Shown here piece after piece: positions 2,286-52,262 of a stretch of 64,000 nucleotides of DNA. The stretch comes from an uncultured Oscillospiraceae bacterium. Lineage in GTDB: Bacteria > Bacillota > Clostridia > Oscillospirales > Ruminococcaceae. The stretch covers positions 2,414-66,413 of the forward strand of contig CAZGFY010000007.1 of NCBI GenBank assembly GCA_964525015.1, read 5' to 3'. Numbering within the stretch: position 1 is the stretch's first letter; each line of letters starts with the position of its first letter. The notes under the pieces are model-generated. The model ran no database searches. It had not been told where the DNA came from and saw nothing but the letters and a program-made list of their open reading frames with translations. The position numbers and the translations under genes were made by a program.

Positions 2286-2293
2286 AAAATTAA

Positions 2294-2336
2294 GGCTGTC
2301 GCAAATGATTTAAATCATTGCGACAGCCTTTTTATA
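2294..2336 (+). terminator. Intrinsic terminator after the phn transporter genes
   Basis: Stem GGCTGTCGCAATGATT / AATCATTGCGACAGCC (one bulged A in the left arm), followed by TTTTTAT. Confidence 0.8.
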
Positions 2337-2492
2337 TTGCGTAAATTAAAAAAATACTACTATATCGGATACTCTAGCCTTACTCACATAATCCGAACCG
2401 CCTAAAATCGGATAATTTTTCTCTAAAACTTGAGTTTAATTCACTTATAAGGCAAAAGTGGAGATTTAATTATAAGATGTATAAATAAGAGT

Positions 2493-3533: not shown

Positions 3534-3823
3534 ATTAAACTCCTTAACTAAATATTAAGTTAATATTTAGTGATTATTAATTTGATTATATACTAATATT
3601 TATTTAAAATCAAGCATAAATTAATTAAAATAAATATTTCTAAAATATTAATTAAAAAATAATATTTTATTAAGTAACTTACAGAATTAGCCTTAAACTA
3701 GATAATATATACTAAAATAATCAACATTAAGGGTGTCTATTGACGAAATACACAAATTAAATATTAATAAATTGAGTCTATATACAAAATTTTGGTAAAT
3801 GGCAAAAATTAGCTAATTTTCAC

Positions 3824-3853
3824 TTGACTAAACGATGCTTATTGATTTATTAT
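3824..3853 (+). promoter_or_regulatory. Candidate sigma-A promoter of the sugar ABC operon
   Basis: TTGACT at 3824-3829, with TATTAT/TATATA-like -10 hexamers 17-18 nt downstream. AT-rich context, so weak support. Confidence 0.3.
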
Positions 3854-3899
3854 ATAAATAAGTTAAGGGGAATTAAGTTGATTTCCTAAATCTTTAAAA

Positions 3900-6795: not shown

Positions 6796-8052
6796 ATGGT
6801 TATTATTATGAATAAATTAGCTGAAAAATCTCCAGTAGAAAATAAAAAAGCTAAAGGCAATTTACCAATAGGAGAATTAGTGCAAAAATACACAATGGTG
6901 ATTATCCTAGTTTTGGTTATAGCTTTTTTTACATGGGGGACAGATGGTAAGTTATTACTTCCACAGAATGTTACTAACTTAATTTCGCAAAATGCGTATG
7001 TGTTTGTATTAGCAGTTGGTATGCTACTTTGTATATTAACTGGTGGTAATATCGATTTATCCGTTGGCTCGGTTGCTGCGTTTGTTGGCGCTGTTGGTGC
7101 TATTATGATGCAAGATGGTGTTAATGTGTGGGCAGCTTGTATAACAATGCTTTTAATAGGGCTTGGTATCGGCGTTTGGCAAGGATTTTGGATTGCCTAT
7201 GTAAGAGTTCCACCTTTTATCGTAACTTTAGCAGGGATGCTCGTTTTTAGAGGTCTTGCAAACGTTGTTTTAGAAGGTATGACAGTTGCTATAAAAAGCG
7301 ATGTATTCGTTAGCACTTTTGGTGGTGGTGCAAGCCCTTATATTCCTGATATATTCGGCGGTGGTATCACTATGATGGTTTCAGGAAAAGAAACAGAACT
7401 TAATACTTTAACACTAGTAGTTGGCGCTGTTGGGATTATTATTTACTTAATATCACAATTAAATGCAAGAAAAACAAGAATTAAAAAAGGATATGAAGTT
7501 GAGTCAATGGCTGCAATGGCTGGAAAATCAGCTTTAATTATAGCTACTATACTATTCTTTACAATTAAATTAAGCCAATACAAAGGTATTCCAACATCAT
7601 TAATATGGGTTGCTGTTATTATAGCTATATATGCGTATATAACATCTAAAACAACTGTTGGTAGACATTTCTATGCAGTTGGTGGTAATGAAAAAGCAGC
7701 AAAACTTTCAGGTATAGACACAAATAAAATCTACTTTATGGCTTATGCAAATATGGGGCTTTTATCAGCTTTAGCAGGTATGCTAACAATAGCTAGGATG
7801 ACATCAGCACAGCCTACATATGGTCAAAACTATGAAATGGACGCTATTGGTTCTTGCTTTATCGGTGGTGCATCTGCATACGGTGGTATAGGAACCGTTC
7901 CAGGGGTAATTGTTGGTGCTTTACTAATGGGTGTAATAAATCTTGGTATGAGTATTATGGGCGTTGATGCAAACTATCAAAGAGTTGTAAAAGGTTTAGT
8001 TCTTTTAGCAGCTGTTATATTTGATGTTGTGTCTAAAAAACGCAAAGCTTAA
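6796..8052 (+). CDS. Sugar ABC transporter permease (GguB/XylH-like)
   Basis: Polytopic membrane protein with FYAVGGNEKAAKLSGI and the ARMTSAQP loop typical of CUT2 permeases. The likely real start is ATG 6808, because the SD is too close to 6796. Confidence 0.85.
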   Translation: MVIIMNKLAEKSPVENKKAKGNLPIGELVQKYTMVIILVLVIAFFTWGTDGKLLLPQNVTNLISQNAYVFVLAVGMLLCILTGGNIDLSVGSVAAFVGAVGAIMMQDGVNVWAACITMLLIGLGIGVWQGFWIAYVRVPPFIVTLAGMLVFRGLANVVLEGMTVAIKSDVFVSTFGGGASPYIPDIFGGGITMMVSGKETELNTLTLVVGAVGIIIYLISQLNARKTRIKKGYEVESMAAMAGKSALIIATILFFTIKLSQYKGIPTSLIWVAVIIAIYAYITSKTTVGRHFYAVGGNEKAAKLSGIDTNKIYFMAYANMGLLSALAGMLTIARMTSAQPTYGQNYEMDAIGSCFIGGASAYGGIGTVPGVIVGALLMGVINLGMSIMGVDANYQRVVKGLVLLAAVIFDVVSKKRKA

Positions 8053-8076: not shown

Positions 8077-8700
8077 ATGAAAATTAAATCAGTATTTGAG
8101 CCAGCATTTTTAGAATATGGTCAGGTTGTTACTGGGTATGATTTTTCTTTGGTGCTAGATATTTTAGAAAATAAAACAGAACTACCAGAAGGAGTTATCT
8201 ATGTTCCTTCCGAGCCACTTTTAGAAGAAACAGAAGTTTTTTTAGAAGTTCAAAACAATGCTTTTGGGGGTATGCCAATACAATTTGGATATTGTAATGG
8301 GCACAATACAAAACTAAACTGCCTTGAATATCACAGAGATAGCGAAATTAATATAGGCACTCGTGATTTTGTTCTTCTTTTAGCAAAGCAAACTAATATT
8401 TCAAATGGAAAACTACACACATCTACTGTTGAAGCGTTTAGCTGTCCAGCAGGAGTAGCAGTTGAACTATTTGCAACATCACTTCACTATGCACCTTGCA
8501 AAACTGATGGTGGATTTAAGGTTATGGTAGTGTTACCAAAGGGAACTAACACAGATAAACCAGAAATTAAAGCTAAAAATCAAGATGACTTAAGACTTTT
8601 TGCAAAAAATAAATGGCTACTTGCGCATAAAGATACTAGCGAAGCTGAAAATGGGGCTTACGTTGGATTAGAAGGAAAAAATATAGATATTAGTCTATAA
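8077..8700 (+). CDS. DUF4867-like protein (small cupin-like, function unknown)
   Basis: The block FGGMPIQFGYCNGHNTKLNCLEYHRDSEINIG and LHYAPCK match my recollection of the DUF4867 family, which often neighbours FucI-like isomerase/FGGY kinase genes. Not verified by search. Confidence 0.55.
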   Translation: MKIKSVFEPAFLEYGQVVTGYDFSLVLDILENKTELPEGVIYVPSEPLLEETEVFLEVQNNAFGGMPIQFGYCNGHNTKLNCLEYHRDSEINIGTRDFVLLLAKQTNISNGKLHTSTVEAFSCPAGVAVELFATSLHYAPCKTDGGFKVMVVLPKGTNTDKPEIKAKNQDDLRLFAKNKWLLAHKDTSEAENGAYVGLEGKNIDISL

Positions 8701-8722
8701 CTAACAAATTTAAAATATTGAA

Positions 8723-10213
8723 ATGGAGAAAAATATTATGCTACAAAATATGCCTGAAGTAAAACTTGGTATTATAGGGGTTTCAAGAGATTGTTTCCCA
8801 GCTTCTTTAACAGAAAGAAGACGCAAAGCAATATGCGATATTTATGGTGCAGAGTTATATCAATGTCCAATAACTGTTGAAACAGAATTAGATGCAAAAA
8901 AAGCAGTTGAAGATGTTAAAAATAATGGAGTAAACTCTCTAGTTGTATTCCTTGGCAACTTTGGCCCAGAAACACCAGAAACAATGATAACTGATTGGTT
9001 TACAGGGCCAATTATGTATGTTGCTGCTTCTGAGGGTGATGGAGATTTAATAGATGGTAGGGGTGATGCATACTGTGGTATGCTAAACTGTAGCTATAAT
9101 CTTGGAATTAGAGGTAAAACTGCATATATTCCAGAATTCCCAGTTGGAACAGCTAAAGAAATTGTAGGTAAAATTAATGATTTTAAATCAATTGCAAGAG
9201 CAGTTTTAGGCGTTAAAAACCTAAAAGTTATAACATTTGGTCCACGTCCGAGCGACTTTTTGGCGTGTAATGGCCCAATTAAAGGCTTATATGATTTAGG
9301 CGTTGAAGTTGAAGAAAATAGCGAACTTGATTTACTAGCAGCATTTAATGCACACGCTGGTGATGAAAGAATAGATGCTATCCTAGATGATATGCAAAAA
9401 GAATTAGGTGCCGAAAATAAATATGCTGGTATCCTGCCAAAACTTGCACAATTTGAGTTAACATTATTAGACTGGATGGAAAGCCATAAAGGGGCAAGAG
9501 ATTATGTAGTGTTTGCAAATAAATGCTGGCCATCATTCCAAACTGAATTTGGATTTGTGCCTTGCTATGTGAATTCACGCCTAACAGGTAGAGGAATTCC
9601 AGTTTCTTGCGAAGTTGATATTTATGGTGCTTTATCAGAATACATAGGTCAATGCGTTTCAAATGGGGCAGTAACACTTTTAGATATTAATAACACAGTT
9701 CCAGATAGTATGTATCAAGAGTCAATTAAAGATAAATACGATATCAGACTAGACGAAACATTTATGGGCTTCCACTGTGGAAACACTTGCTCAGATTTAC
9801 TAAGAAATCCACATATGAGCTATCAAAGAATTATGAAACGTGGACTTGAGCCAGACCTTGCTGAGCCGAATATTTCAAGAGGAACACTTGAAGGAGATAT
9901 TAAAGCTGGCGAAGTTACAATTTATCGCCTGCAAAGTGGAGCTGATACATCATTAAAAGCATATATTGCTCAAGGTGAAGTACTAGATGTTGAAACTCAA
10001 AGTTTTGGTGGTATTGGTATTATTGCAGTTCCAGAAATGGATAGATTCTATCGCCATGTTTTAATTGCAAAACAATATCCACACCACGCAGCGGTTGCAT
10101 TTGGCAAACACGGAAAATTAATATTTGAAGTATTTAAATATCTTGGAATTAAAGATATTTCATACAATCAACCAAAACACTTACCATACCCAGGTGAAAA
10201 TCCTTTTGCTTAA
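8723..10213 (+). CDS. L-fucose/L-arabinose isomerase-family protein (short FucI-like, substrate unknown)
   Basis: 496 aa. N-terminal LGIIGVSRDCFP and overall length are like the COG2407 FucI-like family, not canonical AraA or 591-aa FucI. The likely start is ATG 8738, with GGAG 8 nt upstream. Confidence 0.65.
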   Translation: MEKNIMLQNMPEVKLGIIGVSRDCFPASLTERRRKAICDIYGAELYQCPITVETELDAKKAVEDVKNNGVNSLVVFLGNFGPETPETMITDWFTGPIMYVAASEGDGDLIDGRGDAYCGMLNCSYNLGIRGKTAYIPEFPVGTAKEIVGKINDFKSIARAVLGVKNLKVITFGPRPSDFLACNGPIKGLYDLGVEVEENSELDLLAAFNAHAGDERIDAILDDMQKELGAENKYAGILPKLAQFELTLLDWMESHKGARDYVVFANKCWPSFQTEFGFVPCYVNSRLTGRGIPVSCEVDIYGALSEYIGQCVSNGAVTLLDINNTVPDSMYQESIKDKYDIRLDETFMGFHCGNTCSDLLRNPHMSYQRIMKRGLEPDLAEPNISRGTLEGDIKAGEVTIYRLQSGADTSLKAYIAQGEVLDVETQSFGGIGIIAVPEMDRFYRHVLIAKQYPHHAAVAFGKHGKLIFEVFKYLGIKDISYNQPKHLPYPGENPFA

Positions 10214-38882: not shown

Positions 38883-38946
38883 AAATCTTTTGATTTTTAA
38901 TATCCTAGTTTTACTAACAGTAATATTGAAAGAAAAAATAACAAAT

Positions 38947-38995
38947 AAAAAGGCTGTACCAAGCGTTAATATATGCAAGGTGTAGCCTTTTTGTT
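38947..38995. terminator. Terminator between groEL and the convergent peptidase gene
   Basis: AGGCTGTACC / GGTGTAGCCT stem (2 G-U pairs), an 18-nt loop, and TTTTTG downstream. Confidence 0.55.
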
Positions 38996-38999
38996 GTTT

Positions 39000-39686
39000 T
39001 TATAAGTATTTATTTAAATTATCATTCAATAGTTCGTGTTTTAATATATTACCATTATCGTTTTTAATAATATAGGCACGGGATTTATTATCTGATTTAA
39101 TAATACTGAATTCACCATCGATTTTAGCTAAGGCTGTATTATCTTCTAAAGCAATGCCGATTTCTTGATTAGTTAACATTTTATCAAACGTATGATTTTC
39201 AATTTCGTTGTAATGAGGGCAATGGGCAAAGTTTAAAAGGCTTAATCCCAAAAATTGATTAGGATAAAGAAAAGCGCTATAACCCCTGTTAAACCAGCAA
39301 AGTGCTCCAGCACTAAGCCCGGATAAAACAATTCCTTTTTCATAAGCTAATTTTAAAAGATTATTAGTGCCAGTATTTTGCCACACTTCCATCATTGTAT
39401 TAACATTCCCGCCACCAACATAGATAATATCAGTGTTTAGAATTTTATCTTTAATTTCATCATAAGATAAATTTTTACTAACTAAACACAAACTATCAAC
39501 AACACAGTTTAAAGCTGTAAAGTGTTTAGAAACACTCTCGATGTACCCTTGTGCATCACTTGAGGCAGTTGGAATGAATAAGAGTTTTGGTGTTTCTTTT
39601 TTTGCTAAACTGACTATAAATTTATCTATTAAAAGCGTTTCGCCTTTTGCAATTTCGCCACCACCAATAGCAACTATTTTTCCCAT
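39000..39686 (-). CDS. Peptidase E / S51-family (class-I glutamine amidotransferase-like) protein
   Basis: MGKIVAIGGGE start, IYVGGGN, and LSGLSAGALCW (nucleophile Ser context) typical of S51 dipeptidase E. Confidence 0.7.
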   Translation of the reverse strand: MGKIVAIGGGEIAKGETLLIDKFIVSLAKKETPKLLFIPTASSDAQGYIESVSKHFTALNCVVDSLCLVSKNLSYDEIKDKILNTDIIYVGGGNVNTMMEVWQNTGTNNLLKLAYEKGIVLSGLSAGALCWFNRGYSAFLYPNQFLGLSLLNFAHCPHYNEIENHTFDKMLTNQEIGIALEDNTALAKIDGEFSIIKSDNKSRAYIIKNDNGNILKHELLNDNLNKYL

Positions 39687-39727
39687 TTTAATAACCAGTC
39701 CTTTCTTTGAGCTTTTTGTTTTTATAA

Positions 39728-40240
39728 TTATAAATATAGCTTATAGCTAAATCCAAGCTTTGTTTTTTCTTGTTTAATAAAGCCAACGCTCTCAAACATT
39801 TTTTGAGAAGCGATGTTGTGCTCGTAAATCTCTTTGATATGAAGAGAAGAGAGTCCAAGTGATTTTCCGTAATCAATTAAAGAAAGGATAACTTTTTTAC
39901 CTATGCCTTTCCTTTGATAAGATATATCACCTATCACAATTGGCATATCTAACTCTGAAAAAGATACATCACCAATTGGCAAAAACTCACCATTATCTAA
40001 TATTTCAATAAAAAATAATTCCATATTTTCGTTAAGATAATTATACATTTGATTTAATTTATCTTTACTATATGGCTTTTTTACACCATCAACCATAAAA
40101 ACCGTATCTAAATTTTGATACCATTTAAGTGCGAAACAATGATTTCCATCGTATTTTCTTAATCTTAAATTATCATCTATTTTTATAATTTCAATTTTAC
40201 ATTGATTATCATTCACGCACATATAGTATCTCTCTTTCAT
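39728..40240 (-). CDS. GNAT-family N-acetyltransferase
   Basis: Acetyl-CoA loop YQRKGIGKKVILSLIDYGK and a C-terminal NIASQKMFESVGF motif. Confidence 0.8.
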   Translation of the reverse strand: MKERYYMCVNDNQCKIEIIKIDDNLRLRKYDGNHCFALKWYQNLDTVFMVDGVKKPYSKDKLNQMYNYLNENMELFFIEILDNGEFLPIGDVSFSELDMPIVIGDISYQRKGIGKKVILSLIDYGKSLGLSSLHIKEIYEHNIASQKMFESVGFIKQEKTKLGFSYKLYL

Positions 40241-40597
40241 ATATCAAATTCAGATAAATTAAACTTATATTTCTTAGGAAAAAGCTTTTTTAAACCTTTA
40301 ACAATTAATTTATCTTTTTTAAAAGCAATTTAAATTGCTCTGTTTTAATAAAAATACAAGTAGGACCTGATTTTAAGTCATTAAGCGAAATATTATTATC
40401 TAAAATTATTTCTTTTATAATTTTAGCATTAAGTTTACTTATAATTTTTATCCTTAATATCTATAATTTACTTTATACTAATTATACAAAAACTAAAAGA
40501 TATTTTCAAGATGTATAAATTTATGGTAAAATATTAAAAAAGGTGTTGACATTAACGCTTCGTAATAGTGTATCTTTATAAATAGGGGGTGAAGAAA

Positions 40598-41344
40598 ATG
40601 AATTATAAAACAAGTGAAATAGCGAAAATATCAGGAGTTTCATCGAGAACTTTAAGATACTATGATGAGATAAACCTACTAAGACCAAACAAAGTTGATG
40701 CTAATGGATATCGAGTTTACACAGATAATGAAGTAGATAAACTGCAGATGATACTTTTTTATCGTGAAATGGGTATGCCACTTGAAGAAATAAAAATGCT
40801 TATATCTTCAGATAATTTTGATAAAGAAAAGGCATTAGAATCTCATTTAAAAATTTTATATGAGAAGAAAAGTTTGCTTGAAGAAATGATTCTAAACGTT
40901 ACCCAAACAATAAAATCACAGAAAGAAGGTATACAAATGTCAAACAGTGAAAAATTTAAAGGATTAGAATTAATAGCTGAAAATGAATCAAAGTATGGAA
41001 AAGAGCTAAGAGAAAAATATGGCGATGAAGTTATAAATAAATCTTTTGAAAAAATTAAAAAAGGCAATTTTGATGATATTAAAAAAGCAACAGAAATATT
41101 GAATGATAGCCTAGTAACTGCTTTTAAAACAAATGATGCATCATCTAATGAAGCAGTAATCGCTTGCGATAATCATAAAAATTTACTACTGCTCACTTGG
41201 CCGGATGGAACTTATTCAAAGGAAAGTCAGCTAGCGTTAGTTGAAAGCTTTACAGAAGATGAAAGATTTACAAGTTATTATGAAAATATAGAAAAAGGCT
41301 TGATGGATTTTTTCTATAAGGCAACAAAAAATTATTGCAAATAA
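40598..41344 (+). CDS. MerR-family transcriptional regulator with TipAS-like C-terminal domain
   Basis: HTH YKTSEIAKISGVSSRTLRYYDEINLLRP ... GYRVYTDNEVDKLQMILFYREMGMPLEEIK. GGGGG SD. The ORF-track start at 40589 is a GTG inside the SD. TTGACA at 40546 has a 19-nt spacer to TATCTT, which would fit a MerR-type promoter (weak). Confidence 0.85.
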   Translation: MNYKTSEIAKISGVSSRTLRYYDEINLLRPNKVDANGYRVYTDNEVDKLQMILFYREMGMPLEEIKMLISSDNFDKEKALESHLKILYEKKSLLEEMILNVTQTIKSQKEGIQMSNSEKFKGLELIAENESKYGKELREKYGDEVINKSFEKIKKGNFDDIKKATEILNDSLVTAFKTNDASSNEAVIACDNHKNLLLLTWPDGTYSKESQLALVESFTEDERFTSYYENIEKGLMDFFYKATKNYCK

Positions 41345-41370
41345 AATTGATGAAATATATTATTAAATTA

Positions 41371-41418
41371 AAAAAACACAAATGCTAATTTTAAAAAAAT
41401 CGGCATTTGTGTTTTTTA
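41371..41418. terminator. Bidirectional terminator
   Basis: AAAAACACAAATGC / GCATTTGTGTTTTT. Confidence 0.8.
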
Positions 41419-41438
41419 TATAATTAAAATATAGTTAT

Positions 41439-42639: not shown

Positions 42640-42770
42640 AAGTCTGTTTCAGGGCGAGGTGTAATTCCTCACCGGTGGTTATAGTCCACGAGCTGGAAAA
42701 TATTTCTGGTTGATTTGGTGAAACTCCAAAACCGACGGTATAGTCCGGATGAAAGAAACAAGCATTTTTT
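42640..42770 (+). promoter_or_regulatory. FMN riboswitch (RFN element)
   Basis: Conserved RFN blocks AGGGCGAGGTGTAATTCCTCACCGGTGGT, ATAGTCCACGAGC, GATTTGGTGAAACTCCAAAACCGACGGT and ATAGTCCGGATGAAAGAAAC. P1 pairs GTTTC with GAAAC. Confidence 0.93.
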
Positions 42771-42827: not shown

Positions 42828-42893
42828 TTTTCAAAATAAATACTTGCAAAGAAACAAGACATAATAATTATTATTGTATTTATGGAGGAAATT

Positions 42894-43493
42894 ATGAGTA
42901 CACAATCAAAAAGAAAACCAATGGACACAAGAAGACTAACAGGAACAGCTATGCTTGCGGCATTAGCGTCTGTTTTAATGTTTATTAACTTTGTGCCCCC
43001 GTTAATGCCAAGTTTTATCAAAATGGATTTTTCAGAAATGCCAGCCCTGCTTGCAACTTTTGCTTATGGGCCTATGTATGGCGTTGCCGTTTCATTAATT
43101 AAAAATCTAGTGAACTTACTATCAACTTCAACTGGTGGTGTTGGCGAATTATCAAACTTTATTTTAAGTATCACATTTATTATCCCAGCAGGGCTTATCT
43201 ATCAAAGAAATAAAAGCAAAAAAGGTGCTATAATTGCAGCTTTAGTTGGTGGGATTTTAATGGCTCTTATGAGCGTTCCGTCTAATTTATATGTTGTTTA
43301 TCCGATATACACAGCGTTTTTGCCGATGGAAGCTATTATTGGAATGTATCAAGCAATACTTCCAAGCGTTGATAATTTATTAGAAGCTTTACTAATTTTT
43401 AATATGCCATACACATTTATTAAAGCTATGCTTAATTTATTAATAGTTAGCCTTATATATAAGCCACTATCACCTATACTTCACAAAAGATAG
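42894..43493 (+). CDS. ribU: ECF-type riboflavin transporter S component RibU
   Basis: GGAGG 8 nt upstream of ATG 42894. About 190 aa, 5-6 TM, LTGTAMLAALASVLMFI N-terminus. Controlled by the FMN riboswitch. Confidence 0.85.
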   Translation: MSTQSKRKPMDTRRLTGTAMLAALASVLMFINFVPPLMPSFIKMDFSEMPALLATFAYGPMYGVAVSLIKNLVNLLSTSTGGVGELSNFILSITFIIPAGLIYQRNKSKKGAIIAALVGGILMALMSVPSNLYVVYPIYTAFLPMEAIIGMYQAILPSVDNLLEALLIFNMPYTFIKAMLNLLIVSLIYKPLSPILHKR

Positions 43494-43525: not shown

Positions 43526-43548
43526 ATTACACGAAAAGTAAATACTAC

Positions 43549-43650
43549 ACTTATAAAGAATGGCAGAGGGACTGGCCCTATGAAGCCTAGCAACCTATCT
43601 AAATTAATAGAAAAGGTGCTAAATCCAGCGGTGAAACCGAGAGATAAGTA
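43549..43650 (+). promoter_or_regulatory. SAM-I riboswitch (S-box)
   Basis: CTTATAAAGAATGGCAGAGGGACTGGCCCTATGAAGCCTAGCAACC ... AAGGTGCTAAATCCAGC ... GAGAGATAAG. All S-box core blocks are present. P1 pairs CTTAT with ATAAG. Confidence 0.93.
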
Positions 43651-43710: not shown

Positions 43711-44862
43711 ATGAGAAAAGAATTTTTTACATCTGAATCAGTTACAGAAGGGCATCCAGATAAAATCGCAGACCAAATTTCAGACGCTGTGCTAGATGCT
43801 ATATTAGAAAACGACCCAGACGGGCGTGTTGCTTGCGAAACCTGCGTTACAACGGGGCTTGTAATGTGTATGGGCGAAATTACAACAAATTGCTATGTTG
43901 ATATTCCAAAGCTTGCAAGAAATGTTATAAGAGATATTGGATACACAAGAGCAAAATTTGGCTTTGATAGCGAAACTTGCGCTGTTATGACAACGATTGA
44001 TGAGCAATCAGTTGATATTGCACTTGGAACAAATGATGAAGTTGGTGGAGCAGGCGATCAGGGTATGATGTTTGGTTTTGCTTGCGATGAAACTAAAGAA
44101 TTAATGCCACTTCCAATTTCACTAGCTCATAAATTATCAAAAAGGCTAACTGACGTTAGAAAAGATGGAACTTTAGAATATCTAAGACCAGATGGTAAAA
44201 CACAAGTTACAGTTGAGTATGATGATGGCGTGCCAACTAGAATTGATACAGTTGTTGTATCTTCACAGCACGGGCCAGAAGTATCTTTAGAAAAATTAAG
44301 AGAAGATATTATAAACACTGTTGTAAAACCAATCATTCCAGCTAATCTACTTGATGAAAACACAAAATATCACATAAACCCAACTGGGCGTTTTGTGGTT
44401 GGTGGACCACAAGGGGATAGCGGATTAACAGGAAGAAAAATCATAGTAGACACTTACGGCGGATATGCTCGTCACGGTGGCGGTGCCTTTTCAGGCAAAG
44501 ACCCAACTAAGGTTGATAGAAGTGCAGCTTATGCAGCAAGATATGTTGCGAAAAATATAGTTGCAGCTGGATTTGCTAAAAAATGCGAAGTTCAATTAGC
44601 TTATGCAATCGGCGTGAAAGAGCCAGTTTCAATTTTAGTTGAAACTTTTGGCACTAACACAGTTGAAGTTGAAAAAATCGAAAAAGCAGTTGCACAAACT
44701 TTTGATTTAACACCAAAAGGAATTATCGACACGCTAGAACTTAGAAAACCAATCTATCGTAAGTTGGCAGCTTACGGACATATCGGAAGAGAAGACCTAG
44801 GCGTTAAATGGGAACTAACAGATAAAGCAGAAGAACTAAAAACAGCAGTAGCTGGTATGTAA
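43711..44862 (+). CDS. metK: S-adenosylmethionine synthetase
   Basis: [46 protein letters not shown]. The ORF-track start at 43675 lies inside the riboswitch terminator. ATG 43711 is preferred. Confidence 0.97.
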
Positions 44863-44939
44863 TAAAATTAATTGATATTTAAAAAGTCGAAAATATAAAG
44901 TTTTCGACTTTTTTTGATAAAAAACGACATTTTATTAAT
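44548..44939 (+). repeat. Direct repeat A, copy 1 (metK 3-prime 315 nt + terminator + 23 nt)
   Basis: Compared by eye base for base with 46781-47172 (offset 2233). No difference found over 392 bp. Confidence 0.9.
44881..44916 (+). terminator. metK terminator
   Basis: AGTCGAAAA-TATAAAG-TTTTCGACT followed by a T-run. Confidence 0.85.
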
Positions 44940-45069
44940 GATATGTTAATATAGAATATTATATATATTAACATATATTGGGTATAATAATATTGTAACT
45001 AGTTATAATGCGATAACAATTAATTATTTAAAACAATTATTAGAAATTTATTTGATGGAGGTAATAGTT

Positions 45070-45780
45070 ATGAAAAAATTAGTCAGTATTTTAATTGCTC
45101 TATCTATGGTGGTTGGATTATCACCGTCTGTTTTTGCTAATTCAAGTGGAAGCACTATTGTACTGAAAAGTGATGGCATTACACTCGATAAAACATTTGA
45201 AGTTTTTCCAGAGGTTGAAAAAATATCTAATATGTATAAATCGAATATCGGGAATATTCTTCAAGCTCAAGTATTTGATTCAAACTACAATATTGTATTA
45301 GATACTATTGAAGTTTATTCACAAGAAAAAATTATATTAGAAGATGAAATAATTTATGAGTATAAAGTTAGTGTTGAGTCAAATGGAGATATAAATATTG
45401 CGAGAGTATTTGGGCCAAAAACAACATTGTCTGGAGGGTGGGAATACTACTCATTTGGGAAGAGTCTAAGAAATGGTATAGCTCAATTTACAGGACATAA
45501 TGGAAATGGTCAACCAGTACATGTGATATTGTCAAATGTATACATATCAATATACAATGGTGTGAACGTTCCAGATACTTTACCTGCTACAGGTCACTTT
45601 ATTGGAGGTTCTGTAGGTAGTTCATTTATAGGAGCTGGCTTTGAAAGTGGATATAATATAAACGAATTAAGGTCAGAGTTTGTTATACGTGAGACGGATG
45701 TAGATGCATACGCTAAATTTGGGGATGTAGCAAGATTTCGAGTAGGAGATGATACATGGAAATTCGATGTGTTTCTATAA
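45070..45780 (+). CDS. Secreted hypothetical protein, cassette 1 (X1)
   Basis: GGAGG 8 nt before ATG 45070. Sec signal peptide MKKLVSILIALSMVVGLSPSVFA. Paralogue of 47311..48003 with shared blocks YEYK..V..NG..NIARVFG, GGW.YYS, NGIA and DTW.F. Family not recognised. Confidence 0.7.
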   Translation: MKKLVSILIALSMVVGLSPSVFANSSGSTIVLKSDGITLDKTFEVFPEVEKISNMYKSNIGNILQAQVFDSNYNIVLDTIEVYSQEKIILEDEIIYEYKVSVESNGDINIARVFGPKTTLSGGWEYYSFGKSLRNGIAQFTGHNGNGQPVHVILSNVYISIYNGVNVPDTLPATGHFIGGSVGSSFIGAGFESGYNINELRSEFVIRETDVDAYAKFGDVARFRVGDDTWKFDVFL

Positions 45781-45865
45781 TAATTTTAGAAAATAAAAAT
45801 GTTCTTTACTGTAGTTAGATAGCCAAATATACTTTAGATATAGCTAATAAGTCAAGGAGGATATT

Positions 45866-46717
45866 ATGAAAAACCTTATCACAGTAAGTATAATATTATT
45901 AGTGATTTTAACTGGATGTACTTCGAGTGAAACATCAAAAGAGAATTTAACAGCTGATGAAAGTAGTGAAAAATTAGTTTATTTGCAAGAGATAAATTCA
46001 GCATTAGAAAAATCGAACGAATTTGAAACTATTGAAGTTCAGGGTGTTTACACTTTAAACGGGTATACACAAATGAGCACCAGATTATTTTCAAGAAATC
46101 CTAATATGTATTATCTTTATCCAACTAATAAAGAAGATGTACCATCTGGGGCATATTATGAAAATATCTATATAGAAGATGAAAACGTTATCGGAAGTAT
46201 AAGGGATGCATCATTTAATGGTGGTAAGGAAGGTGAGTTAGCATTTATTGAAACTGAGATTGATACTATTTTTATAGAAGGGGAATTTACTTCTAATATC
46301 TTTGATATGGGATTAACTCAAAGTATAGATTTTATAAAAAGTATAGAAAAGGAAGATAATGTTTACACTTTAATAGCTAGTGATGCTTATTTTGAAAATG
46401 TGCGTGAGAATACAATAGAAAATATTAAAGAGCAAGGAAAAGAATTGCCAGAAGAAATGCAAGGGATTGTTAGCCAAAATATTGCATATATCGAGAGCCA
46501 AGAAAGCCCAAAATTAACAGTTATAATAAATATTGAAGATGAAAAAGCTATAAAAATAGAGCAGATAAGCAGTATGATGGCTTCACAATTTGCAGAAAAT
46601 TATACAGTCACTCAGGAAAAATTCTTAACGGAAAGTAATACCAAAATGCTTGTAATAAGATTTAATGATGAAGAAATAAGAAATGAAATCTTAAAAGTTT
46701 ATGATATGTATAAATAA
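45866..46717 (+). CDS. Hypothetical acidic lipoprotein, cassette 1 (Y1)
   Basis: AAGGAGG SD. Lipobox LTGC. Paralogue of 48123..48974 with shared blocks YL.EIN.AL, FETIE, SIEK.DNVYT..ASD.YFE and an identical C-terminal IRFNDEEIRNEILKVYDMYK. Confidence 0.7.
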   Translation: MKNLITVSIILLVILTGCTSSETSKENLTADESSEKLVYLQEINSALEKSNEFETIEVQGVYTLNGYTQMSTRLFSRNPNMYYLYPTNKEDVPSGAYYENIYIEDENVIGSIRDASFNGGKEGELAFIETEIDTIFIEGEFTSNIFDMGLTQSIDFIKSIEKEDNVYTLIASDAYFENVRENTIENIKEQGKELPEEMQGIVSQNIAYIESQESPKLTVIINIEDEKAIKIEQISSMMASQFAENYTVTQEKFLTESNTKMLVIRFNDEEIRNEILKVYDMYK

Positions 46718-46786
46718 TGCTAAAAAGAGTGGCGAAAGTCACTCTTTTTTCATATAATAATTTAATAAATAAAAGAAAGGGCGAAA
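46659..46786 (+). repeat. Direct repeat B, copy 1 (lipoprotein-gene tail + terminator + 36 nt)
   Basis: Matches 48916-49044 except for one synonymous aat/aac change and one extra A in an A-run. Confidence 0.85.
46722..46750 (+). terminator. Terminator after Y1
   Basis: AGAGTGGC-GAAA-GTCACTCT (GNRA-type tetraloop) followed by TTTTT. Confidence 0.8.
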
Positions 46787-47095
46787 AATATAGTTGCAGC
46801 TGGATTTGCTAAAAAATGCGAAGTTCAATTAGCTTATGCAATCGGCGTGAAAGAGCCAGTTTCAATTTTAGTTGAAACTTTTGGCACTAACACAGTTGAA
46901 GTTGAAAAAATCGAAAAAGCAGTTGCACAAACTTTTGATTTAACACCAAAAGGAATTATCGACACGCTAGAACTTAGAAAACCAATCTATCGTAAGTTGG
47001 CAGCTTACGGACATATCGGAAGAGAAGACCTAGGCGTTAAATGGGAACTAACAGATAAAGCAGAAGAACTAAAAACAGCAGTAGCTGGTATGTAA
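46781..47095 (+). pseudogene. metK: metK 3-prime fragment (last 104 codons), duplicated copy lacking the N-terminal two thirds
   Basis: The ORF-track entry 46847..47095 is identical to the MetK C-terminus. Homology starts at 46781 ([12 protein letters not shown]...). There is no canonical start codon or SD of its own. Confidence 0.85.
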
Positions 47096-47113
47096 TAAAA
47101 TTAATTGATATTT

Positions 47114-47149
47114 AAAAAGTCGAAAATATAAAGTTTTCGACTTTTTTTG
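47114..47149 (+). terminator. Duplicated metK terminator
   Basis: Same hairpin as 44881-44916. Confidence 0.8.
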
Positions 47150-47310
47150 ATAAAAAACGACATTTTATTAATATAAAATTTAAAAAAAATTATTATTGTA
47201 GTTAAGTTTTTAACCTATAATATAAATGTAATCGATTACTTTTATATAGAACTTAATTTGTAATGGTTCTATGACATTTGGATGTATAGTGGGATAAGGG
47301 GGTAATTTCA

Positions 47311-48003
47311 ATGAAAAAGGTTATAAGTGTAATGATAATGATTTCGATATTTTTTATGATGTCTGCAACAACTTTTGCAACATCGGATATGAGTGTTGAT
47401 GAAATGAATGTAAAAGAGTTGACGTTTGATAAGGCATTTGAAATTTTTCCGCAAGCTGAGGTGATTTCAAATATTTATAAAGTAAATAATATACAAGTAC
47501 TTAGGAATGAGTTTACTACGCTAGAAAACCATTTGGGTTTAAATTATAATGAAGTGTATTCTGATCATAAAATAGTTGTAGAAGATGGTATAGTATACGA
47601 ATATAAAATAAATGTGAACAATAATGGTGAAGTTAATATAGCAAGAGTTTTTGGTAATAATTTAAATGGTGGATGGGCATATTATTCTGATAGAAAAACG
47701 CTATCAAATGGTATAGCAACTTATTTAGGTGGAACAGGAGATACAATTATATATGTTACTTTAATAAATATAAATTTTACTATTTATTATGGAGTGAGTA
47801 ATAAAGATTTCATTTCAAGCACACATTCTTTTGCGTCAGGTAGTATTGCAGGAACAGTTAATAATGTGGGAGGTCAAAATTTATTTAATGAGCGTACTGG
47901 ATTTAAGAAGGTAGAAACAAGTAGTAATGCATACGCTGCATATGCTGGAGTAGCAATGTTTGAGCTGGGTTCAGACACATGGAATTTTTATTACATTCCT
48001 TAA
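47311..48003 (+). CDS. Secreted hypothetical protein, cassette 2 (X2)
   Basis: GGGGG SD. Signal peptide MKKVISVMIMISIFFMMSATTFA. Diverged paralogue of X1. Confidence 0.7.
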   Translation: MKKVISVMIMISIFFMMSATTFATSDMSVDEMNVKELTFDKAFEIFPQAEVISNIYKVNNIQVLRNEFTTLENHLGLNYNEVYSDHKIVVEDGIVYEYKINVNNNGEVNIARVFGNNLNGGWAYYSDRKTLSNGIATYLGGTGDTIIYVTLININFTIYYGVSNKDFISSTHSFASGSIAGTVNNVGGQNLFNERTGFKKVETSSNAYAAYAGVAMFELGSDTWNFYYIP

Positions 48004-48122
48004 GTATTAAATGTTGATGAAGTTTTATTTATATTAATAATTTATTAACATAAAACCATTAAAATGCAAATGTGTAAATGTTATAATATATAATATAAAT
48101 GAAATGATTGGAGGAAACTAAT

Positions 48123-48974
48123 ATGAAAAAACTAGTTGTTTTTAACGTTTTATTATTTTTGGTTTTAGTCGGATGTTCGCAAGATGAAATAAGTGTTGAA
48201 ACTACTGCAAATGTGGGTCAAGGTGTAAACCTTGAATATTTAGAAGAAATAAACACAGCACTTACGAATAGCGAAAATTTTGAAACTATTGAGTTAGAAA
48301 GAAATTCAAGCTTTAATCAGTCAAGTCAAAAGCATATAACATTGATTTCAAAAGGTCCGAATATGGGATATAGTTATCCGGTGTATGAAGATGAAAGTAT
48401 GATGCAGTATTATTATGGAGATATCTACATAGAAGAAGATAATTTTATTGCTTGGATTGTTTCGATGGATGATGATAAAGAACTTACTATAATGCCTCAA
48501 GAAGAAAATTATTTTTATCTCAATGGGGAGGTTAAGTCTGATTATTTCAAAATTAGTTTATTAGAAAATCCTGAATTTATTCAAAGTATAGAAAAGAAAG
48601 ACAATGTTTATACTGTTGTGGCAAGTGATAAATATTTTGAGTACACTTTAGAAGAAACGATTAAAAATATACAAGAAATAACCGACAAGGCTCCAGAAGA
48701 CGGTAAAGAATCAGCACAAGCAAGTGCTAATCAGTTTATAGAATACAATCAAAATTTAGAAGAACAAAAATTAACGATTGAAATAATAGTTGAGAACGAT
48801 ATGGTTGTGAGCTACTATGCTCTATCTAGTATGATGGCACCACAATATACCAATGATTTTAAAGTAACTAAAAAAAAATACTATTCAGAAACTGGTAGTA
48901 AAATAGAGATAATCCGATTTAATGATGAAGAAATAAGAAACGAAATCTTAAAAGTTTATGATATGTATAAATAA
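48123..48974 (+). CDS. Hypothetical acidic lipoprotein, cassette 2 (Y2)
   Basis: GGAGG 8 nt before ATG 48123 (the ORF-track TTG 48108 is part of the SD region). Lipobox LVGC. Diverged paralogue of Y1. Confidence 0.7.
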   Translation: MKKLVVFNVLLFLVLVGCSQDEISVETTANVGQGVNLEYLEEINTALTNSENFETIELERNSSFNQSSQKHITLISKGPNMGYSYPVYEDESMMQYYYGDIYIEEDNFIAWIVSMDDDKELTIMPQEENYFYLNGEVKSDYFKISLLENPEFIQSIEKKDNVYTVVASDKYFEYTLEETIKNIQEITDKAPEDGKESAQASANQFIEYNQNLEEQKLTIEIIVENDMVVSYYALSSMMAPQYTNDFKVTKKKYYSETGSKIEIIRFNDEEIRNEILKVYDMYK

Positions 48975-49044
48975 TGCTAAAAAAGAGTGGCGAAAGTCAC
49001 TCTTTTTTCATATAATAATTTAATAAATAAAAGAAAGGGCGAAA
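48916..49044 (+). repeat. Direct repeat B, copy 2
   Basis: See 46659-46786. Confidence 0.85.
48979..49008 (+). terminator. Terminator after Y2
   Basis: Same GAAA-tetraloop hairpin as 46722-46750. Confidence 0.8.
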
Positions 49045-49047
49045 GAT

Positions 49048-49347
49048 ATGTTTTATCATTTATTAAATATTATATACGCAGCCTTTTTTACGCTAGGGGT
49101 TTATTTTGTGTTTGAGATGATTTTAAAATCTTTTCAAAAGCAAAATATTCCAAAATCTATAACGATAATTTTAGAGGAAACAGAAAAAGAAACAAATAGA
49201 AATATAAGATTTTTAAAGAGTAATTTAATAAATCATAATATAGTTTTAATTTCTTATAAAGAAAATGATGAAGATAAAGAGATAAAAAGAATAAAAAAAG
49301 AAGATTTACACAAATTTATCTTAAATGAATTATTTACAAATACCTAG
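49048..49347 (+). CDS. Small hypothetical membrane protein (99 aa)
   Basis: One N-terminal TM (IIYAAFFTLGVYFVFEMIL) and a Lys/Glu-rich tail. Its SD (AAAGGG) lies inside repeat B. Confidence 0.5.
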   Translation: MFYHLLNIIYAAFFTLGVYFVFEMILKSFQKQNIPKSITIILEETEKETNRNIRFLKSNLINHNIVLISYKENDEDKEIKRIKKEDLHKFILNELFTNT

Positions 49348-49420: not shown

Positions 49421-51625
49421 TTGCAGGAACTTTTAAAGCTAGAAGGCGATATAGTTAATATAACTTTTAGAAGTAGCGAAACTGGATTTACTGTTTTAGA
49501 ACTTCTATCAGGTGATGAATATATAACAGCAGTAGGCGAGATGGCAGAAGTAGCAGCAGGACAAAAACTTGTGGTTTTTGGCTCCTATGTAAGCCATCCT
49601 TCTTTTGGTATGCAATTTAAAATCCAAAGCTATGAAGTTGTTTTTCCATCTAGCGTTAATGCGATACTTACATATCTTTCAAGTGGGATTATTAAAGGGA
49701 TAGGCCCTGTGACAGCTAAAAGAATAGTTGACACCTTTTTAGAAGACACTTTTTTAATACTAGACGCTCACCCTGAAAAACTAGGCGAGATTAAAGGGTT
49801 ATCCTATAAAAAGGCGCTTGAAATACAAAGCGAATTTAAAAGAATATATGGAGTACAAGATGCAATAAGGGAATTTTCAGCGTTTGATATCAGTGCTTCT
49901 GAGGCTATAAATTTATACACTCAGTATGGCGCAGATGTTGTTGTGAAAATTAAAGAAAATCCGTATTTAATCTGCTTTGCGCCTTGCTTTCTTCCTTTTG
50001 AAAAGGCAGAAGAAATTGCAAACACCCTAACTTTTGAGTATGATGCAAAAGAAAGAATAGACGGTGCAGTTTTATATGTTTTAAATCACAACACCCAAAA
50101 AGGACACACCTGTGTGCCAAGAAAAAAACTTATAAAAACTGTTTCGGCTTTTATATCTGTTGAAGAGGATAAAATTGATAGCTATATAAATGAGATGCTA
50201 GATGAAAATAAAATTATCTTAGAAGAAATTAATAGCGAAGAATTTATTTTTATTCCAGAATTATATTCAGCTGAAATGATAGGTGCACAAAAGATTTGCG
50301 ATTTGCTTTATAGAAAGGTGAGAGCGTATGAAAATTTTGAAGAAAAGATAAAAGATATTCAGTTTCTTCATAATATTCAGTATGCACCACTTCAAATTAA
50401 AGCTATAAAAACAGTTTTGGAAAATAATGTTTGCGTTATAACAGGCGGTCCTGGTACTGGTAAAACAACCTTGGTTAAAGGGATAATCAGCCTTTTTGAA
50501 TCAAGGGCAGATAGAGTTTTTTTATGTGCGCCAACTGGGAGGGCTGCAAAAAGACTTAGCGAATTATCAAAAAAAGAGGCAAAAACAATTCATCGTTTAT
50601 TAGGGTGCGAAAAAAGTGGGCGAGATGGCGTTAAATTTTCAAAGAATATGGAAAGTCCGCTTGATTGTGAAGTGCTAATTGTTGATGAATTTTCAATGGT
50701 GGACACTCTTTTATTCAGCCATTTAATAACGGCTGTTAAAGAAAACACAAGGGTAATTTTAGTTGGAGATTATAATCAGCTTCCAGCCGTTGGGGCAGGG
50801 AATATTTTAAAAGATTTAATTCAAAGTAATATAGTTCCAAAAGTGGAGCTCACTGAGATATTTCGCCAAGCTAGAGAGAGCGATATAATAGTTAATGCTC
50901 ACTCAATTAATAATGGAGAAATCCCAAAAACAACTAAAAAGCAATCCGATTATTATTTTATTAGCAGTAATGAAATGAATGCTGGAAATCTTATTTCGGA
51001 TTTAATAACTCAAAGACTTCCAAAGGCATATGGATTTGATACAAATGAAGATATACAAATTCTTTCTCCATCAAGAAAAAAACGAGGTGGAACTCAAAAT
51101 CTAAATGCTATTTTACAAGAGGTTATTAATCCGGAAAATAATTCTAAACATCAAATAAAAATAAACGGGATAACCTATCGCGTGGGCGATAAAGTTATGC
51201 AAACTAAGAATAATTATGATATTCAATACACTAAAGACGATGGCGAAAATGAAACAGGGGTTTTTAATGGTGATATTGGGTATATAATATCAATAGATAA
51301 GTTTAATAGGGAATTAAAAGTTAGGATTGAAGATAAGGTTTATGATTATCAGGGCGAAGATATACAGCAATTAGAGCACGCGTGGGTGATAACAGTGCAT
51401 AAAAGCCAAGGCTGTGAATTTAAAGCTGTTATATTAAGTATTCCAGACACTGTAAAAGAACTTCAATATAGAAACCTACTTTATACAGCATTTACAAGGG
51501 CAAAAGAGCTTTTAATAGTGGTTGGTAAACCTGAAATTTTATCTAATATGGTTAAAAATAATAAAACTCAATTAAGATATTCTGCGATAAAACATTTTAT
51601 GACGGAGTATTATTATGTTGATTAA
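49421..51625 (+). CDS. recD2: RecD2-type ATP-dependent DNA helicase
   Basis: TTG start. N-terminal FRSSETGFTVLEL OB-like region, Walker A GGPGTGKTT, Walker B VDEFSMVD, and SF1B blocks VGDYNQLPAVGAG and TVHKSQG. Confidence 0.9.
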   Translation: MQELLKLEGDIVNITFRSSETGFTVLELLSGDEYITAVGEMAEVAAGQKLVVFGSYVSHPSFGMQFKIQSYEVVFPSSVNAILTYLSSGIIKGIGPVTAKRIVDTFLEDTFLILDAHPEKLGEIKGLSYKKALEIQSEFKRIYGVQDAIREFSAFDISASEAINLYTQYGADVVVKIKENPYLICFAPCFLPFEKAEEIANTLTFEYDAKERIDGAVLYVLNHNTQKGHTCVPRKKLIKTVSAFISVEEDKIDSYINEMLDENKIILEEINSEEFIFIPELYSAEMIGAQKICDLLYRKVRAYENFEEKIKDIQFLHNIQYAPLQIKAIKTVLENNVCVITGGPGTGKTTLVKGIISLFESRADRVFLCAPTGRAAKRLSELSKKEAKTIHRLLGCEKSGRDGVKFSKNMESPLDCEVLIVDEFSMVDTLLFSHLITAVKENTRVILVGDYNQLPAVGAGNILKDLIQSNIVPKVELTEIFRQARESDIIVNAHSINNGEIPKTTKKQSDYYFISSNEMNAGNLISDLITQRLPKAYGFDTNEDIQILSPSRKKRGGTQNLNAILQEVINPENNSKHQIKINGITYRVGDKVMQTKNNYDIQYTKDDGENETGVFNGDIGYIISIDKFNRELKVRIEDKVYDYQGEDIQQLEHAWVITVHKSQGCEFKAVILSIPDTVKELQYRNLLYTAFTRAKELLIVVGKPEILSNMVKNNKTQLRYSAIKHFMTEYYYVD

Positions 51626-52262
51626 TTTTATTAAAAGTTTAGTTGTGCCAAATAGGTGCCCAGCTTGCCAAAAATTTATAGAAAATGAAGAAAATATCTG
51701 CTTTGATTGTAAAGAAGATATAAAAAATCAAAAGGTGCATTCTTTAGATAAGAAGATAGAATTTTCAAATAAGGTGTATTCATCATACTATTACTATGGT
51801 AAAATAAGAGATATTGTGCTTTTTGCAAAGTATAAATCGCCTATATATTTTACGAAGTTTTTTATTGATAATGTTGGGAATGATATATTAAACCTTATAA
51901 AAGAAAATGATATAGATTATGTTATATCTGCCCCTTTTCATAAATCAAAGCTTTATAAATATGAGTATGATTTACCTAGCGAAATACTAAAATCGCTATC
52001 TGAAAAATTAAATGTAAAAACAATTGATGCAGTAAGAAAAAATGTAAAAACTCAAAAGCAACAAGATTTAAGCGAAGAAGAAAGAAAAGTAAATCTTATT
52101 AATGCATTTTTAGTTATAAAAGATATTAAAGATAAAAATATCCTACTGCTTGATGATATAATAACAACAGGAAACACAATTTCTCAGCTTTCTTTAGTTT
52201 TAAAAGAAGCAGGGGCAAACAAGGTTATAGCATATAGCTTTGCAATAAGAAAGGAAGAATAA
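51615..52262 (+). CDS. comFC: ComF-family protein (ComFC, phosphoribosyltransferase-like)
   Basis: N-terminal CPACQ ... CFDC zinc finger and a C-terminal PRTase loop ILLLDDIITTGNT. Overlaps the recD2 stop. Confidence 0.85.
   Translation: MLINFIKSLVVPNRCPACQKFIENEENICFDCKEDIKNQKVHSLDKKIEFSNKVYSSYYYYGKIRDIVLFAKYKSPIYFTKFFIDNVGNDILNLIKENDIDYVISAPFHKSKLYKYEYDLPSEILKSLSEKLNVKTIDAVRKNVKTQKQQDLSEEERKVNLINAFLVIKDIKDKNILLLDDIITTGNTISQLSLVLKEAGANKVIAYSFAIRKEE

Follow-up and report, generated by a model that had tools for sequence, protein, structure and literature searches.

Two alleles of one cassette-type locus, kept side by side in one bacterial genome, are known mostly from classical genetics. The precedents are the binary-capsulated transformants of pneumococcus and Haemophilus, and merodiploids made by transformation (PMC3784515; Austrian & Bernheimer 1959; Bernheimer & Wermundsen 1969; Johnston et al. 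2013). The joints of homology-facilitated illegitimate recombination have a microhomology range of 3-10 bp (PMC6382021, citing de Vries & Wackernagel 2002, Prudhomme et al. 2002). In Staphylococcus aureus, tandem lipoprotein clusters, lpl and csa1, have been described (Tsuru & Kobayashi 2008, PMC2568036), also as "gene accordions" (Belikova et al. 2020, PMC7360770). In this study, the locus downstream of metK, the S-adenosylmethionine (SAM) synthetase gene, was analyzed in a 64,000-nt stretch (the window) of an uncultured Oscillospiraceae bacterium (GCA_964525015.1, contig CAZGFY010000007.1, 2,414-66,413, forward strand). Two tandem units were found there, each with a secreted protein gene and a lipoprotein gene. 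Heteroallelic merodiploidy is the category that suits the locus best, as a new natural case. Provided that the assembly is correct, it is a base-pair-resolved example from nature of both alleles of a hypervariable cassette locus kept in tandem. The agr specificity groups, capsule and O-antigen loci, and fungal mating-type idiomorphs are hypervariable allelic loci with conserved flanks. Short-junction, RecA-independent tandem duplications were reportedly described in Salmonella and Escherichia coli by Reams, Roth and colleagues.

The units stand head-to-tail on the forward strand, i.e., unit 1 at 44548-46780 and unit 2 at 46781-49038. Both are edged by the same two segments, flank A and flank B. 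The copies of flank A (44548-44939 and 46781-47172) open with GCGAAA and are identical at 392/392 positions. By the repeat search of the whole window (cut-off of at least 45 nt) and by direct base comparison, the exact run is 392 nt and is not extendable leftward. Flank A contains the last 104 codons of metK, the stop, the terminator hairpin (44881-44913), and 26 nt past the hairpin; its second copy is a promoterless metK 3' fragment with a terminator. Flank B (46659-46786 and 48916-49044) contains the last 19 codons of the lipoprotein gene, its terminator, and the TATAAT and ribosome-binding stretch which normally precede orf99, a small membrane protein gene. Both copies of flank B close with GCGAAA, and the second is followed at once by GATATGTT with the start codon of orf99. 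The copies are 98.4% identical; a synonymous AAT/AAC substitution and an A-run of 5 vs 6 A are the only differences, both confined to the core-proximal half. Flanks A and B are the sole repeats of at least 45 nt within the window, and no inverted repeats of this length were found in it.

Between the flanks, core 1 (44940-46658) carries the allele in common with a sister species, and core 2 (47173-48915) carries a divergent allele. Each core comprises a promoter region, a secreted protein gene, i.e., sec1 (45070-45780) or sec2 (47311-48003), and most of a lipoprotein gene, i.e., lipo1 (45866-46717) or lipo2 (48123-48974). Amino acid (aa) identity was 41% for both pairs, i.e., 95/232 for sec1 and sec2, and 119/287 for lipo1 and lipo2. 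In codon-level estimates, the nonsynonymous divergence (dN) of the cores was ~0.55 and the synonymous divergence (dS) was 1.5-2.2, which is saturated; the genes had 54-56% nt identity. In the global alignment of both units, identity per 100 columns was 100% through 44847, 95% in the boundary block, and 44-65% across the core, with the fall to about 50% coming after 44939. Counted per 30 nt, the matches climb from 18-22 to 29-30 at about 46659, so the boundaries are sharp on both sides.

The synonymous divergence of the cores would predict dozens of changes in the 312 coding bases of flank A, and 0 were observed. By this estimate, the contrast between flanks and cores is far beyond chance. Plain tandem copies are expected to diverge uniformly, whereas here the flanks are 100% and 98.4% identical and the core proteins 41%. 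The two units are not copies of each other, and therefore the locus is not a plain duplication. A first-pass annotation, made from the letters only, had described flank A as 392 identical bp, flank B as differing by one synonymous substitution and one A-run indel, and the cores as sharing 40-45% aa identity by eye. All three descriptions agree with the present measurements. Its argument that duplication followed by uniform drift cannot yield such a mosaic also holds, as the flanks are clearly more conserved than the cores in DNA (100% and 98.4% vs about 52-56%).

The age of the cores was compared with two related loci, i.e., L001 of the sister species (GCA_964571025.1) and L002 of an Oscillospiraceae metagenome-assembled genome. 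The L001 lipoprotein showed 65% aa identity to lipo1 and 36% to lipo2. Together with the 41% identity between lipo1 and lipo2, this places cassette 2 as an outgroup to cassette 1 and the L001 gene. By sequence comparison, cassette 1 is orthologous to the one lipoprotein that the sister species has at this locus. The housekeeping dS between these species is 0.5-1.0, the core dS is at least 1.5, and flank A has 0 changes. Because the divergence of the cores exceeds that of the species, the cores predate the species split, whereas the flanks coalesce essentially now.

Cassette 2 has the gene order of cassette 1, and its -10 region TATAATATAAATGTA is in common with L001. The GC content at third codon positions (GC3) of cassette 2 is 0.19-0.215 vs a background of 0.204 +/- 0.022, and cassette 1 is native in composition as well. 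A foreign origin of cassette 2 by composition was rejected, since GC and GC3 are equal to the background. In searches of phage, plasmid, and viral collections (tblastn, viral scan), the cassette proteins had no match. By its native GC3, its collinearity, and the common -10 region, cassette 2 is an old allele or paralogue of the same locus, not outside cargo. The identity of flank A extends to the very edge of the diverged core, which argues that the donor of the second unit was conspecific. A donor of ~13-15% divergence, like L001 or L002, would leave single-nucleotide polymorphisms in flank A.

GCGAAA was found at 44548, 46781, and 49039, and the B-to-A joint formed only at 46781 (46781-46786). 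There, the hexamer is common to the end of flank B and to the metK codons Ala-Lys. The parent before orf99 reads AAAGGGCGAAAGATATGTTTT, the parent in metK reads TATGTTGCGAAAAATATAGTT, and the joint made from them reads AAAGGGCGAAAAATATAGTT. The microhomology is 6 bp when counted exactly and 10/11 when in register (GCGAAAnATAT). The 6-bp joint falls inside the range given for homology-facilitated illegitimate recombination (PMC6382021). By these features, the joint is typical of illegitimate recombination. In L002, metK reads GCAAAA at the equivalent site, and GCGAAA was not found in the orf99 leaders of L001 and L002. Because the GCGAAA pair is lineage-specific, a young joint is favored.

The motif GATATGTT was found 6 times on the forward strand in the 64 kb, and 3/6 copies abut boundaries, i.e., at 44540 just before the first flank A (A1), at 44940 just after A1, and at 49045 just after the second flank B (B2). 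The three GCGAAA sites and the GATATGTT copies at 44540 and 49045 lie where the first-pass annotation had placed them. It had suggested that GATATGTT may be a coincidence, and this is right only in part, as the junction parents match further in register. The boundary pattern is partly due to this in-register similarity and to an internal near-repeat of metK (ATATGTTGC / ATATAGTTGC). In two of the three boundary copies, the motif is simply part of a coding or leader sequence. After the copy at 44940 comes AATATAG, and these 7 nt also stand after GCGAAA in metK. The stretch 44940-44954 equals metK 44540-44560 without GCGAAA, which is explained only in part by the extended junction microhomology. 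The 44940 copy is not conserved in L001, and the 50 nt around it showed no significant similarity to metK or orf99 in local alignment. A derivation of the start of core 1 (44940-44985) from metK or from the orf99 5' end was also considered. This was rejected, because other AT-rich promoter regions rank higher in local alignments over the whole window.

The interval between metK and orf99 was compared in the relatives. In L001, the order is the metK 3' end (87.6% nt identity), a promoter region of the unit-1 type, a lipoprotein gene, a B-type terminator, orf99, and recD2. No secreted-protein gene was found in this interval, and the lipoprotein gene directly follows the promoter region. The flanking DNA of L002 is about 81-85% identical to the window, and the MetK proteins share 91% aa identity. 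The order in L002 is metK, an 86-aa zinc-ribbon open reading frame (ORF) (7770-8030, reverse strand), a 155-aa membrane-anchored protein (8285-8752, forward strand), the conserved terminator and box, orf99, and recD2. Both L002 ORFs are unrelated to the cassette genes. The 155-aa protein and the secreted proteins were tried as relatives of the lipoprotein family and rejected (hhalign probability 2-3%). The contents differ among the window, L001, and L002, and the metK-orf99 interval is therefore a variable slot between conserved borders.

Neither the A repeat nor the cassette nor any duplication was found in L002, and no trace of a homoallelic duplication was seen in the relatives examined. 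The L001 genome gave no second lipoprotein of the cassette type; the further paralogues found in it are distant and lie elsewhere. For the metK-recD2 interval of related genomes, the first-pass annotation had considered one cassette, other alleles, or more copies. One lipoprotein allele was found in L001, and extra copies were not found in L002 or the visible part of L001. Position 1 of the L001 contig corresponds to window position 44570, inside metK and only 22 nt past the point that matches the beginning of A; this may be chance, or it may be a repeat or branch point. The L001 contig covers the locus from that point on, and the joint with the metK fragment is absent in L002.

Searching a 5.8-billion-cluster collection with lipo1 gave three proteins, i.e., itself, lipo2, and P0002 (65% identity), and each of the three clusters was seen on 1 contig. 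P0002 is the lipoprotein at the equivalent locus on L001. Exact-protein look-up of MetK, lipo1, and orf99 gave no other assemblies of the same species. The metagenome scans with the conserved B-flank pattern and the lipoprotein profile gave 0 matches, and the genome scan with orf99 matched L002 only.

As the origin of the locus, a recent heteroallelic merodiploid is tentatively favored, in which two old alleles would have been united by one illegitimate joint and a homologous exchange in a flank. From the arrangement of the repeats, we infer the following donor and course. Two old and highly diverged module alleles, C1 and C2, would have existed between near-identical flanks in this lineage. 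DNA with one allele would have been added beside the resident allele in an ancestor, not swapped for it. One donor end would have undergone homologous recombination in a flank. The other end would have joined illegitimately, GCGAAA(n)ATAT upstream of orf99 with GCGAAA(A)ATAT inside metK. The product would be metK-A-C1-B/A'-C2-B-orf99, with the dead metK 3' fragment as a scar. In the simplest account, all of this would be a single event of the homology-facilitated illegitimate recombination type. The homologous anchor could lie in B2 and the DNA that follows it, or in metK and A1; both are identical or near-identical, so the crossover is invisible. Campbell-type insertion of a GCGAAA-closed circle is topologically the same, and the sequence cannot separate these routes.

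Such a tandem would be metastable, since either repeat can recombine. If RecA recombined the two A copies (392 bp), unit 1 would be lost, and metK would stay intact with C2. Recombination between the B copies (128 bp) would delete the metK fragment and C2, and leave C1. The cell could thus fall back to either allele. The first of these deletions had been foreseen by the first-pass annotation and is correct as a prediction; the loss of cassette 2 is added here. Of the two origins which that annotation proposed, the capture of an allelic cassette is the better supported, by the collinearity, the native composition, and the position of cassette 2 as outgroup. Repeated conversion of the flanks is the weaker option. 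With a correct assembly, the locus shows how one microhomology joint can make allele addition out of allele replacement, and the fragment of a housekeeping gene is left as a datable mark. The general mechanisms, i.e., illegitimate recombination, merodiploidy, and flank-mediated allele exchange, are already established, and the evidence base of this case is one genome.

Several points weigh against the recent union of two alleles. The genes are carried by one assembly only, and the polymorphism of C1 and C2 between common flanks is deduced, not observed. The metK end of the donor had a homologue, A1, and allele replacement should far outnumber addition in such a case. Of competence genes, only the ComFC-like gene was seen near the locus. 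The joint was read from the assembled contig only. The GATATGTT copy at 44940, at the boundary of A1 and core 1, is unexplained by this model.

The same final structure and the same microhomology joint would result from two steps, i.e., a RecA-independent short-junction duplication of 44548-46780 at GCGAAA and a later replacement of one core via flanks A and B. Both B differences lie in the core-proximal half, which fits a crossover inside B, and allele replacement through conserved flanks is expected at such loci. Tandem paralogues of the lipoprotein family also exist elsewhere, as two adjacent copies at another locus (L005). However, two rare events are required in one lineage, and the intermediate with two identical 2.2-kb repeats would be very unstable unless selected. 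No relative examined has a trace of a homoallelic duplication. This course is considered unlikely. An ancient tandem duplication before the species split is placed lower still. Here, the cores would have diverged in place, and repeated gene conversion would have homogenized the flanks, with the live metK as template for its fragment and B2 as template for B1. The sharp boundaries fit conversion tracts that end where homology ends. L001 could have lost C2 via B-by-B deletion, and the start of its contig 22 nt past the A-start equivalent might mark a repeat edge there too. Against this, a useless 392-bp direct repeat around 1.8 kb should be deleted by its own homogenizing recombination, and 100% identity over 80 non-coding bases means a coalescence time of essentially zero. 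L002 lacks both cassette and A repeat, the L001 genome has only the distant paralogues, and the GCGAAA microhomology is lineage-specific. The chance of an assembly or sample artefact is rated as low as that of the ancient duplication, and both are less likely than the recent merodiploid. In that case, the chromosome would carry C2 only, and the A-C1-B loop would stem from chimeric reads, from another strain in the co-assembly, or from a separate molecule such as an excised or free 2.2-kb circle. Co-assembly produced the metagenome-assembled genomes of the relatives and may have produced the window as well, short reads hardly resolve an exact repeat of 392 bp, and no second assembly confirms the structure. 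However, a two-strain bubble holds no B-to-A k-mers, and a 6-bp overlap cannot make that edge. The joint comes after the B1 variant and orf99 after the B2 variant, so the tandem path is forced unless there is a free circle. From these distinguishable B copies with their different exits, we infer that any C1 chromosome must continue through A into C2. A simple two-strain bubble was rejected on this logic. The 2.2-kb loop has no replication gene, and a free circle of this size is the expected excision product of the tandem itself.

It is very doubtful, but conceivable, that the locus is an allele-stacking and switching device without a recombinase. The gene pair would then be a specificity module under balancing selection, with several idiomorph-like alleles maintained in the species between the conserved A and B flanks. 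Recurrent tandems, formed at the metK/orf99 microhomology, would resolve through A-by-A or B-by-B recombination, and clonal populations would contain C1, C2, and C1+C2 cells. On equally slight grounds, the pair might consist of, e.g., a toxin and a lipoprotein that gives immunity to it, or a surface receptor and its partner. With as little probability, GATATGTT at the three boundaries might be the footprint of recurrent events. The least probable explanation by far is a site-specific mobile cassette. Unit 1 would be non-autonomous, would bring its own copy of the metK 3' end, and would be inserted at that end by a recombinase encoded elsewhere, with GATATGTT or GCGAAA as the core site. The boundary positions of three GATATGTT copies (44540, 44940, 49045), against only 6 in 64 kb on this strand, would suit it. 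So would the module at an unrelated locus of a relative, bracketed there by 46-nt inverted repeats. However, no integrase, transposase, or att-like inverted repeat (of at least 45 nt) was found in the window, and since no recombinase is encoded at about 36-56 kb, the locus is not regarded as a mobile cassette. A perfect "att" of 392 bp is far longer than known cores. For the B flank, its terminator, and the promoter region, L001 and L002 have orthologous sequence in their chromosomes, and the lack of GATATGTT conservation at 44940 in L001 also speaks against such a site.

When compared with described systems, the favored recent merodiploid is closest in outcome to the binary-capsule transformants. 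In its joint, it is closest to homology-facilitated illegitimate recombination and short-junction duplications, and in gene type to lpl/csa1. The binary-capsule strains also have two alleles of a cassette-type locus with common flanks side by side, which are unstable and can segregate to either allele. Merodiploids made by transformation likewise arise from duplication by recombination without mobile-element enzymes. However, no structure was ever worked out for the classical binary strains, whereas here it was read to the base from the assembly. Those transformants arise by natural transformation, and the present case is known from assembled sequence alone. The duplications of Johnston et al. 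2013 were 100-900 kb and were joined at long insertion sequence (IS) repeats by alternative homologous pairing (PMC3784515), in contrast to the 2.2 kb and the 6-bp joint found here.

Homology-facilitated illegitimate recombination uses one homologous anchor and adds new DNA in a single event, as is proposed for this locus, and its joint is likewise a relatively GC-rich microhomology of 3-10 bp. In its classical form, the illegitimate end has no recipient homologue. Here that end is metK, identical to the resident A1, and because of this homologue the event would not be of the classical form. The short-junction duplications are also head-to-tail units with a new join at a few bases of microhomology. 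Their units are identical when formed, whereas the present cores differ by ~45% in DNA between identical edges. At the agr, capsule, O-antigen, and idiomorph loci, as here, ancient alleles lie between homogenized flanks, with abrupt boundaries which may fall inside coding sequence. Those loci normally have one allele per genome, whereas here two stand in tandem, from which C1 and C2 would segregate.

The S. aureus lpl and csa1 clusters are tandem, fast-diverging lipoprotein paralogues with short conserved segments as recombination sites. As would hold for the present locus, copy number can grow and shrink, and the evolutionary unit is not the ORF. However, the conserved segments in S. aureus are the central region of each ORF, whereas here they are the unit edges, i.e., the end of a housekeeping gene and a terminator. 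Here there are only two units, each also with a secreted-protein gene, unlike in S. aureus. The DUF576 (Lpl/Csa) profile had no match in 13 members of the present lipoprotein family, and because of this the family is not assigned to Lpl/Csa.

The two cassette proteins gave matches only at the level of signal peptides in Pfam, NCBIfam, PHROG, PADLOC, and PDB sequences. The 13 lipoprotein family members had no match in Pfam at E<=0.1. An exhaustive search with the lipoprotein profile found 12 representatives among 1.84 billion proteins, from few related metagenome-assembled genomes and at diverse loci. All members have a lipobox and a conserved C-terminal RFNDNENIxNEI motif. The lipoboxes LTGC / LVGC stand at residues 15-18, and C18 is nearly invariant in the 13 members. 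Two adjacent paralogues were found in L005 (3283-4182 and 4233-4694), the second cut by the contig end, and the family therefore forms tandem arrays elsewhere.

The AlphaFold model of the lipoprotein was poor, with a predicted local distance difference test score (pLDDT) of 53.7, and that of the secreted protein scored 36.4. The top Foldseek matches of the lipoprotein model were LolA, LprG, LolB, and RseB, with template modeling (TM) scores of only 0.2-0.4. The structures of Csa1 and SAOUHSC_02783 were among the weak fold matches. The lipoprotein model thus gives only a weak hint of a LolA/LprG-like fold, an unclosed beta-barrel with a helical lid of the lipid- or lipoprotein-binding type.

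At L008, another locus in the L001 genome (GCA_964571025.1 contig 41), a 220-aa secreted protein (3787-4446) was identified by hhalign as a homologue of sec1 and sec2 (probability 99.1%, E 1.5e-18). Its gene is directly upstream of the lipoprotein paralogue P0012. As the pair is present both at the metK slot and at L008, its two genes make up a conserved module. The L008 module is located between an SNF-family transporter and a Crp-like regulator, and inverted copies of a ~46-nt terminator hairpin were found at 3549-3595 and 5455-5500 (43/46 matches). The dN/dS of the module was roughly 0.25-0.4, given the saturated dS, and by this estimate its aa sequence evolves fast under purifying selection. 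The module is a previously undescribed and very narrowly distributed pair, i.e., a predicted Sec-secreted beta-rich protein and a LolA-like lipoprotein. A fast-evolving envelope module is thus flagged, which is kept paired at two unrelated loci and lies, beside metK, in a variable slot.

The expression signals of both units are complete on the forward strand. The -10 box TATAAT is at 44983-44988 in unit 1, where the promoter region is homologous to L001, and at 47216-47221 in unit 2, at the same offset, i.e., exactly 43 nt past the end of A in each unit. All four cassette genes have good ribosome-binding sites and intact export signals. The signal peptide of sec1 ends in VFA, and lipo1 has the lipobox LTGC; lipo2 also has a lipobox. 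A terminator hairpin follows lipo1 (46722-46750), where the terminator and the downstream box are conserved in L001 and L002, and a terminator also follows lipo2. Each unit has its own promoter, genes, and terminator, and is therefore a self-contained expression module. Both modules are probably expressed. The metK fragment in the second A copy has no start codon at its beginning, and its sole in-frame start is GTG at 46847, without a good ribosome-binding site. The fragment is probably non-functional.

The right border of the variable interval is orf99 (49048-49347, forward strand), with 81% aa identity in L001 and 78% in L002. Its copies (window 49048-49347, L001 1425-1724, L002 8827-9126) encode 99 aa with one N-terminal hydrophobic helix, are always directly upstream of recD2, and have no family assignment. 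The terminator and TATAAT box before orf99 are conserved at 92%, above the surrounding DNA. The recD2 helicase gene (49421-51625, forward strand) showed the Pfam domains AAA_30, HHH_RecD2, SH3_13, and OB_YrrC. In L001, recD2 (1796-3998) was called as two ORFs of 283 and 449 aa, whereas it is one 734-aa gene in the window and L002. The split call is a frameshift, a pseudogene, or a sequencing error. Downstream of recD2, a ComFC-like gene (51615-52262) was found, then mreB and pcrA.

On the left side, the intact metK (43711-44862, forward strand) showed three Pfam S-AdoMet synthetase domains (E 1e-44 to 1e-69) and is preceded by a SAM riboswitch leader (43548-43650, forward strand; Rfam RF00162, 81 bits). 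The neighbors at about 36-56 kb were housekeeping genes, i.e., GroEL, peptidase S51, GNAT, MerR/TipAS, MscS, RibU, MetK, RecD2, ComFC, MreB, and PcrA. This region contained neither integrase nor transposase genes, nor a tRNA or an IS end, in agreement with the first-pass annotation, which had seen no integrase, transposase, or IS end nearby. A flavin mononucleotide (FMN) riboswitch (42641-42764) stands before, and controls, an S component of the energy-coupling factor (ECF) type, RibU-like (42882-43493), immediately upstream of the SAM-riboswitch-controlled metK. Between groEL and the MscS gene, a segment of ~2.5 kb (38886-41437) encodes the peptidase S51, the GNAT acetyltransferase, and the MerR/TipAS regulator. 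This segment is missing from the otherwise collinear L002 and is therefore another indel between the species.

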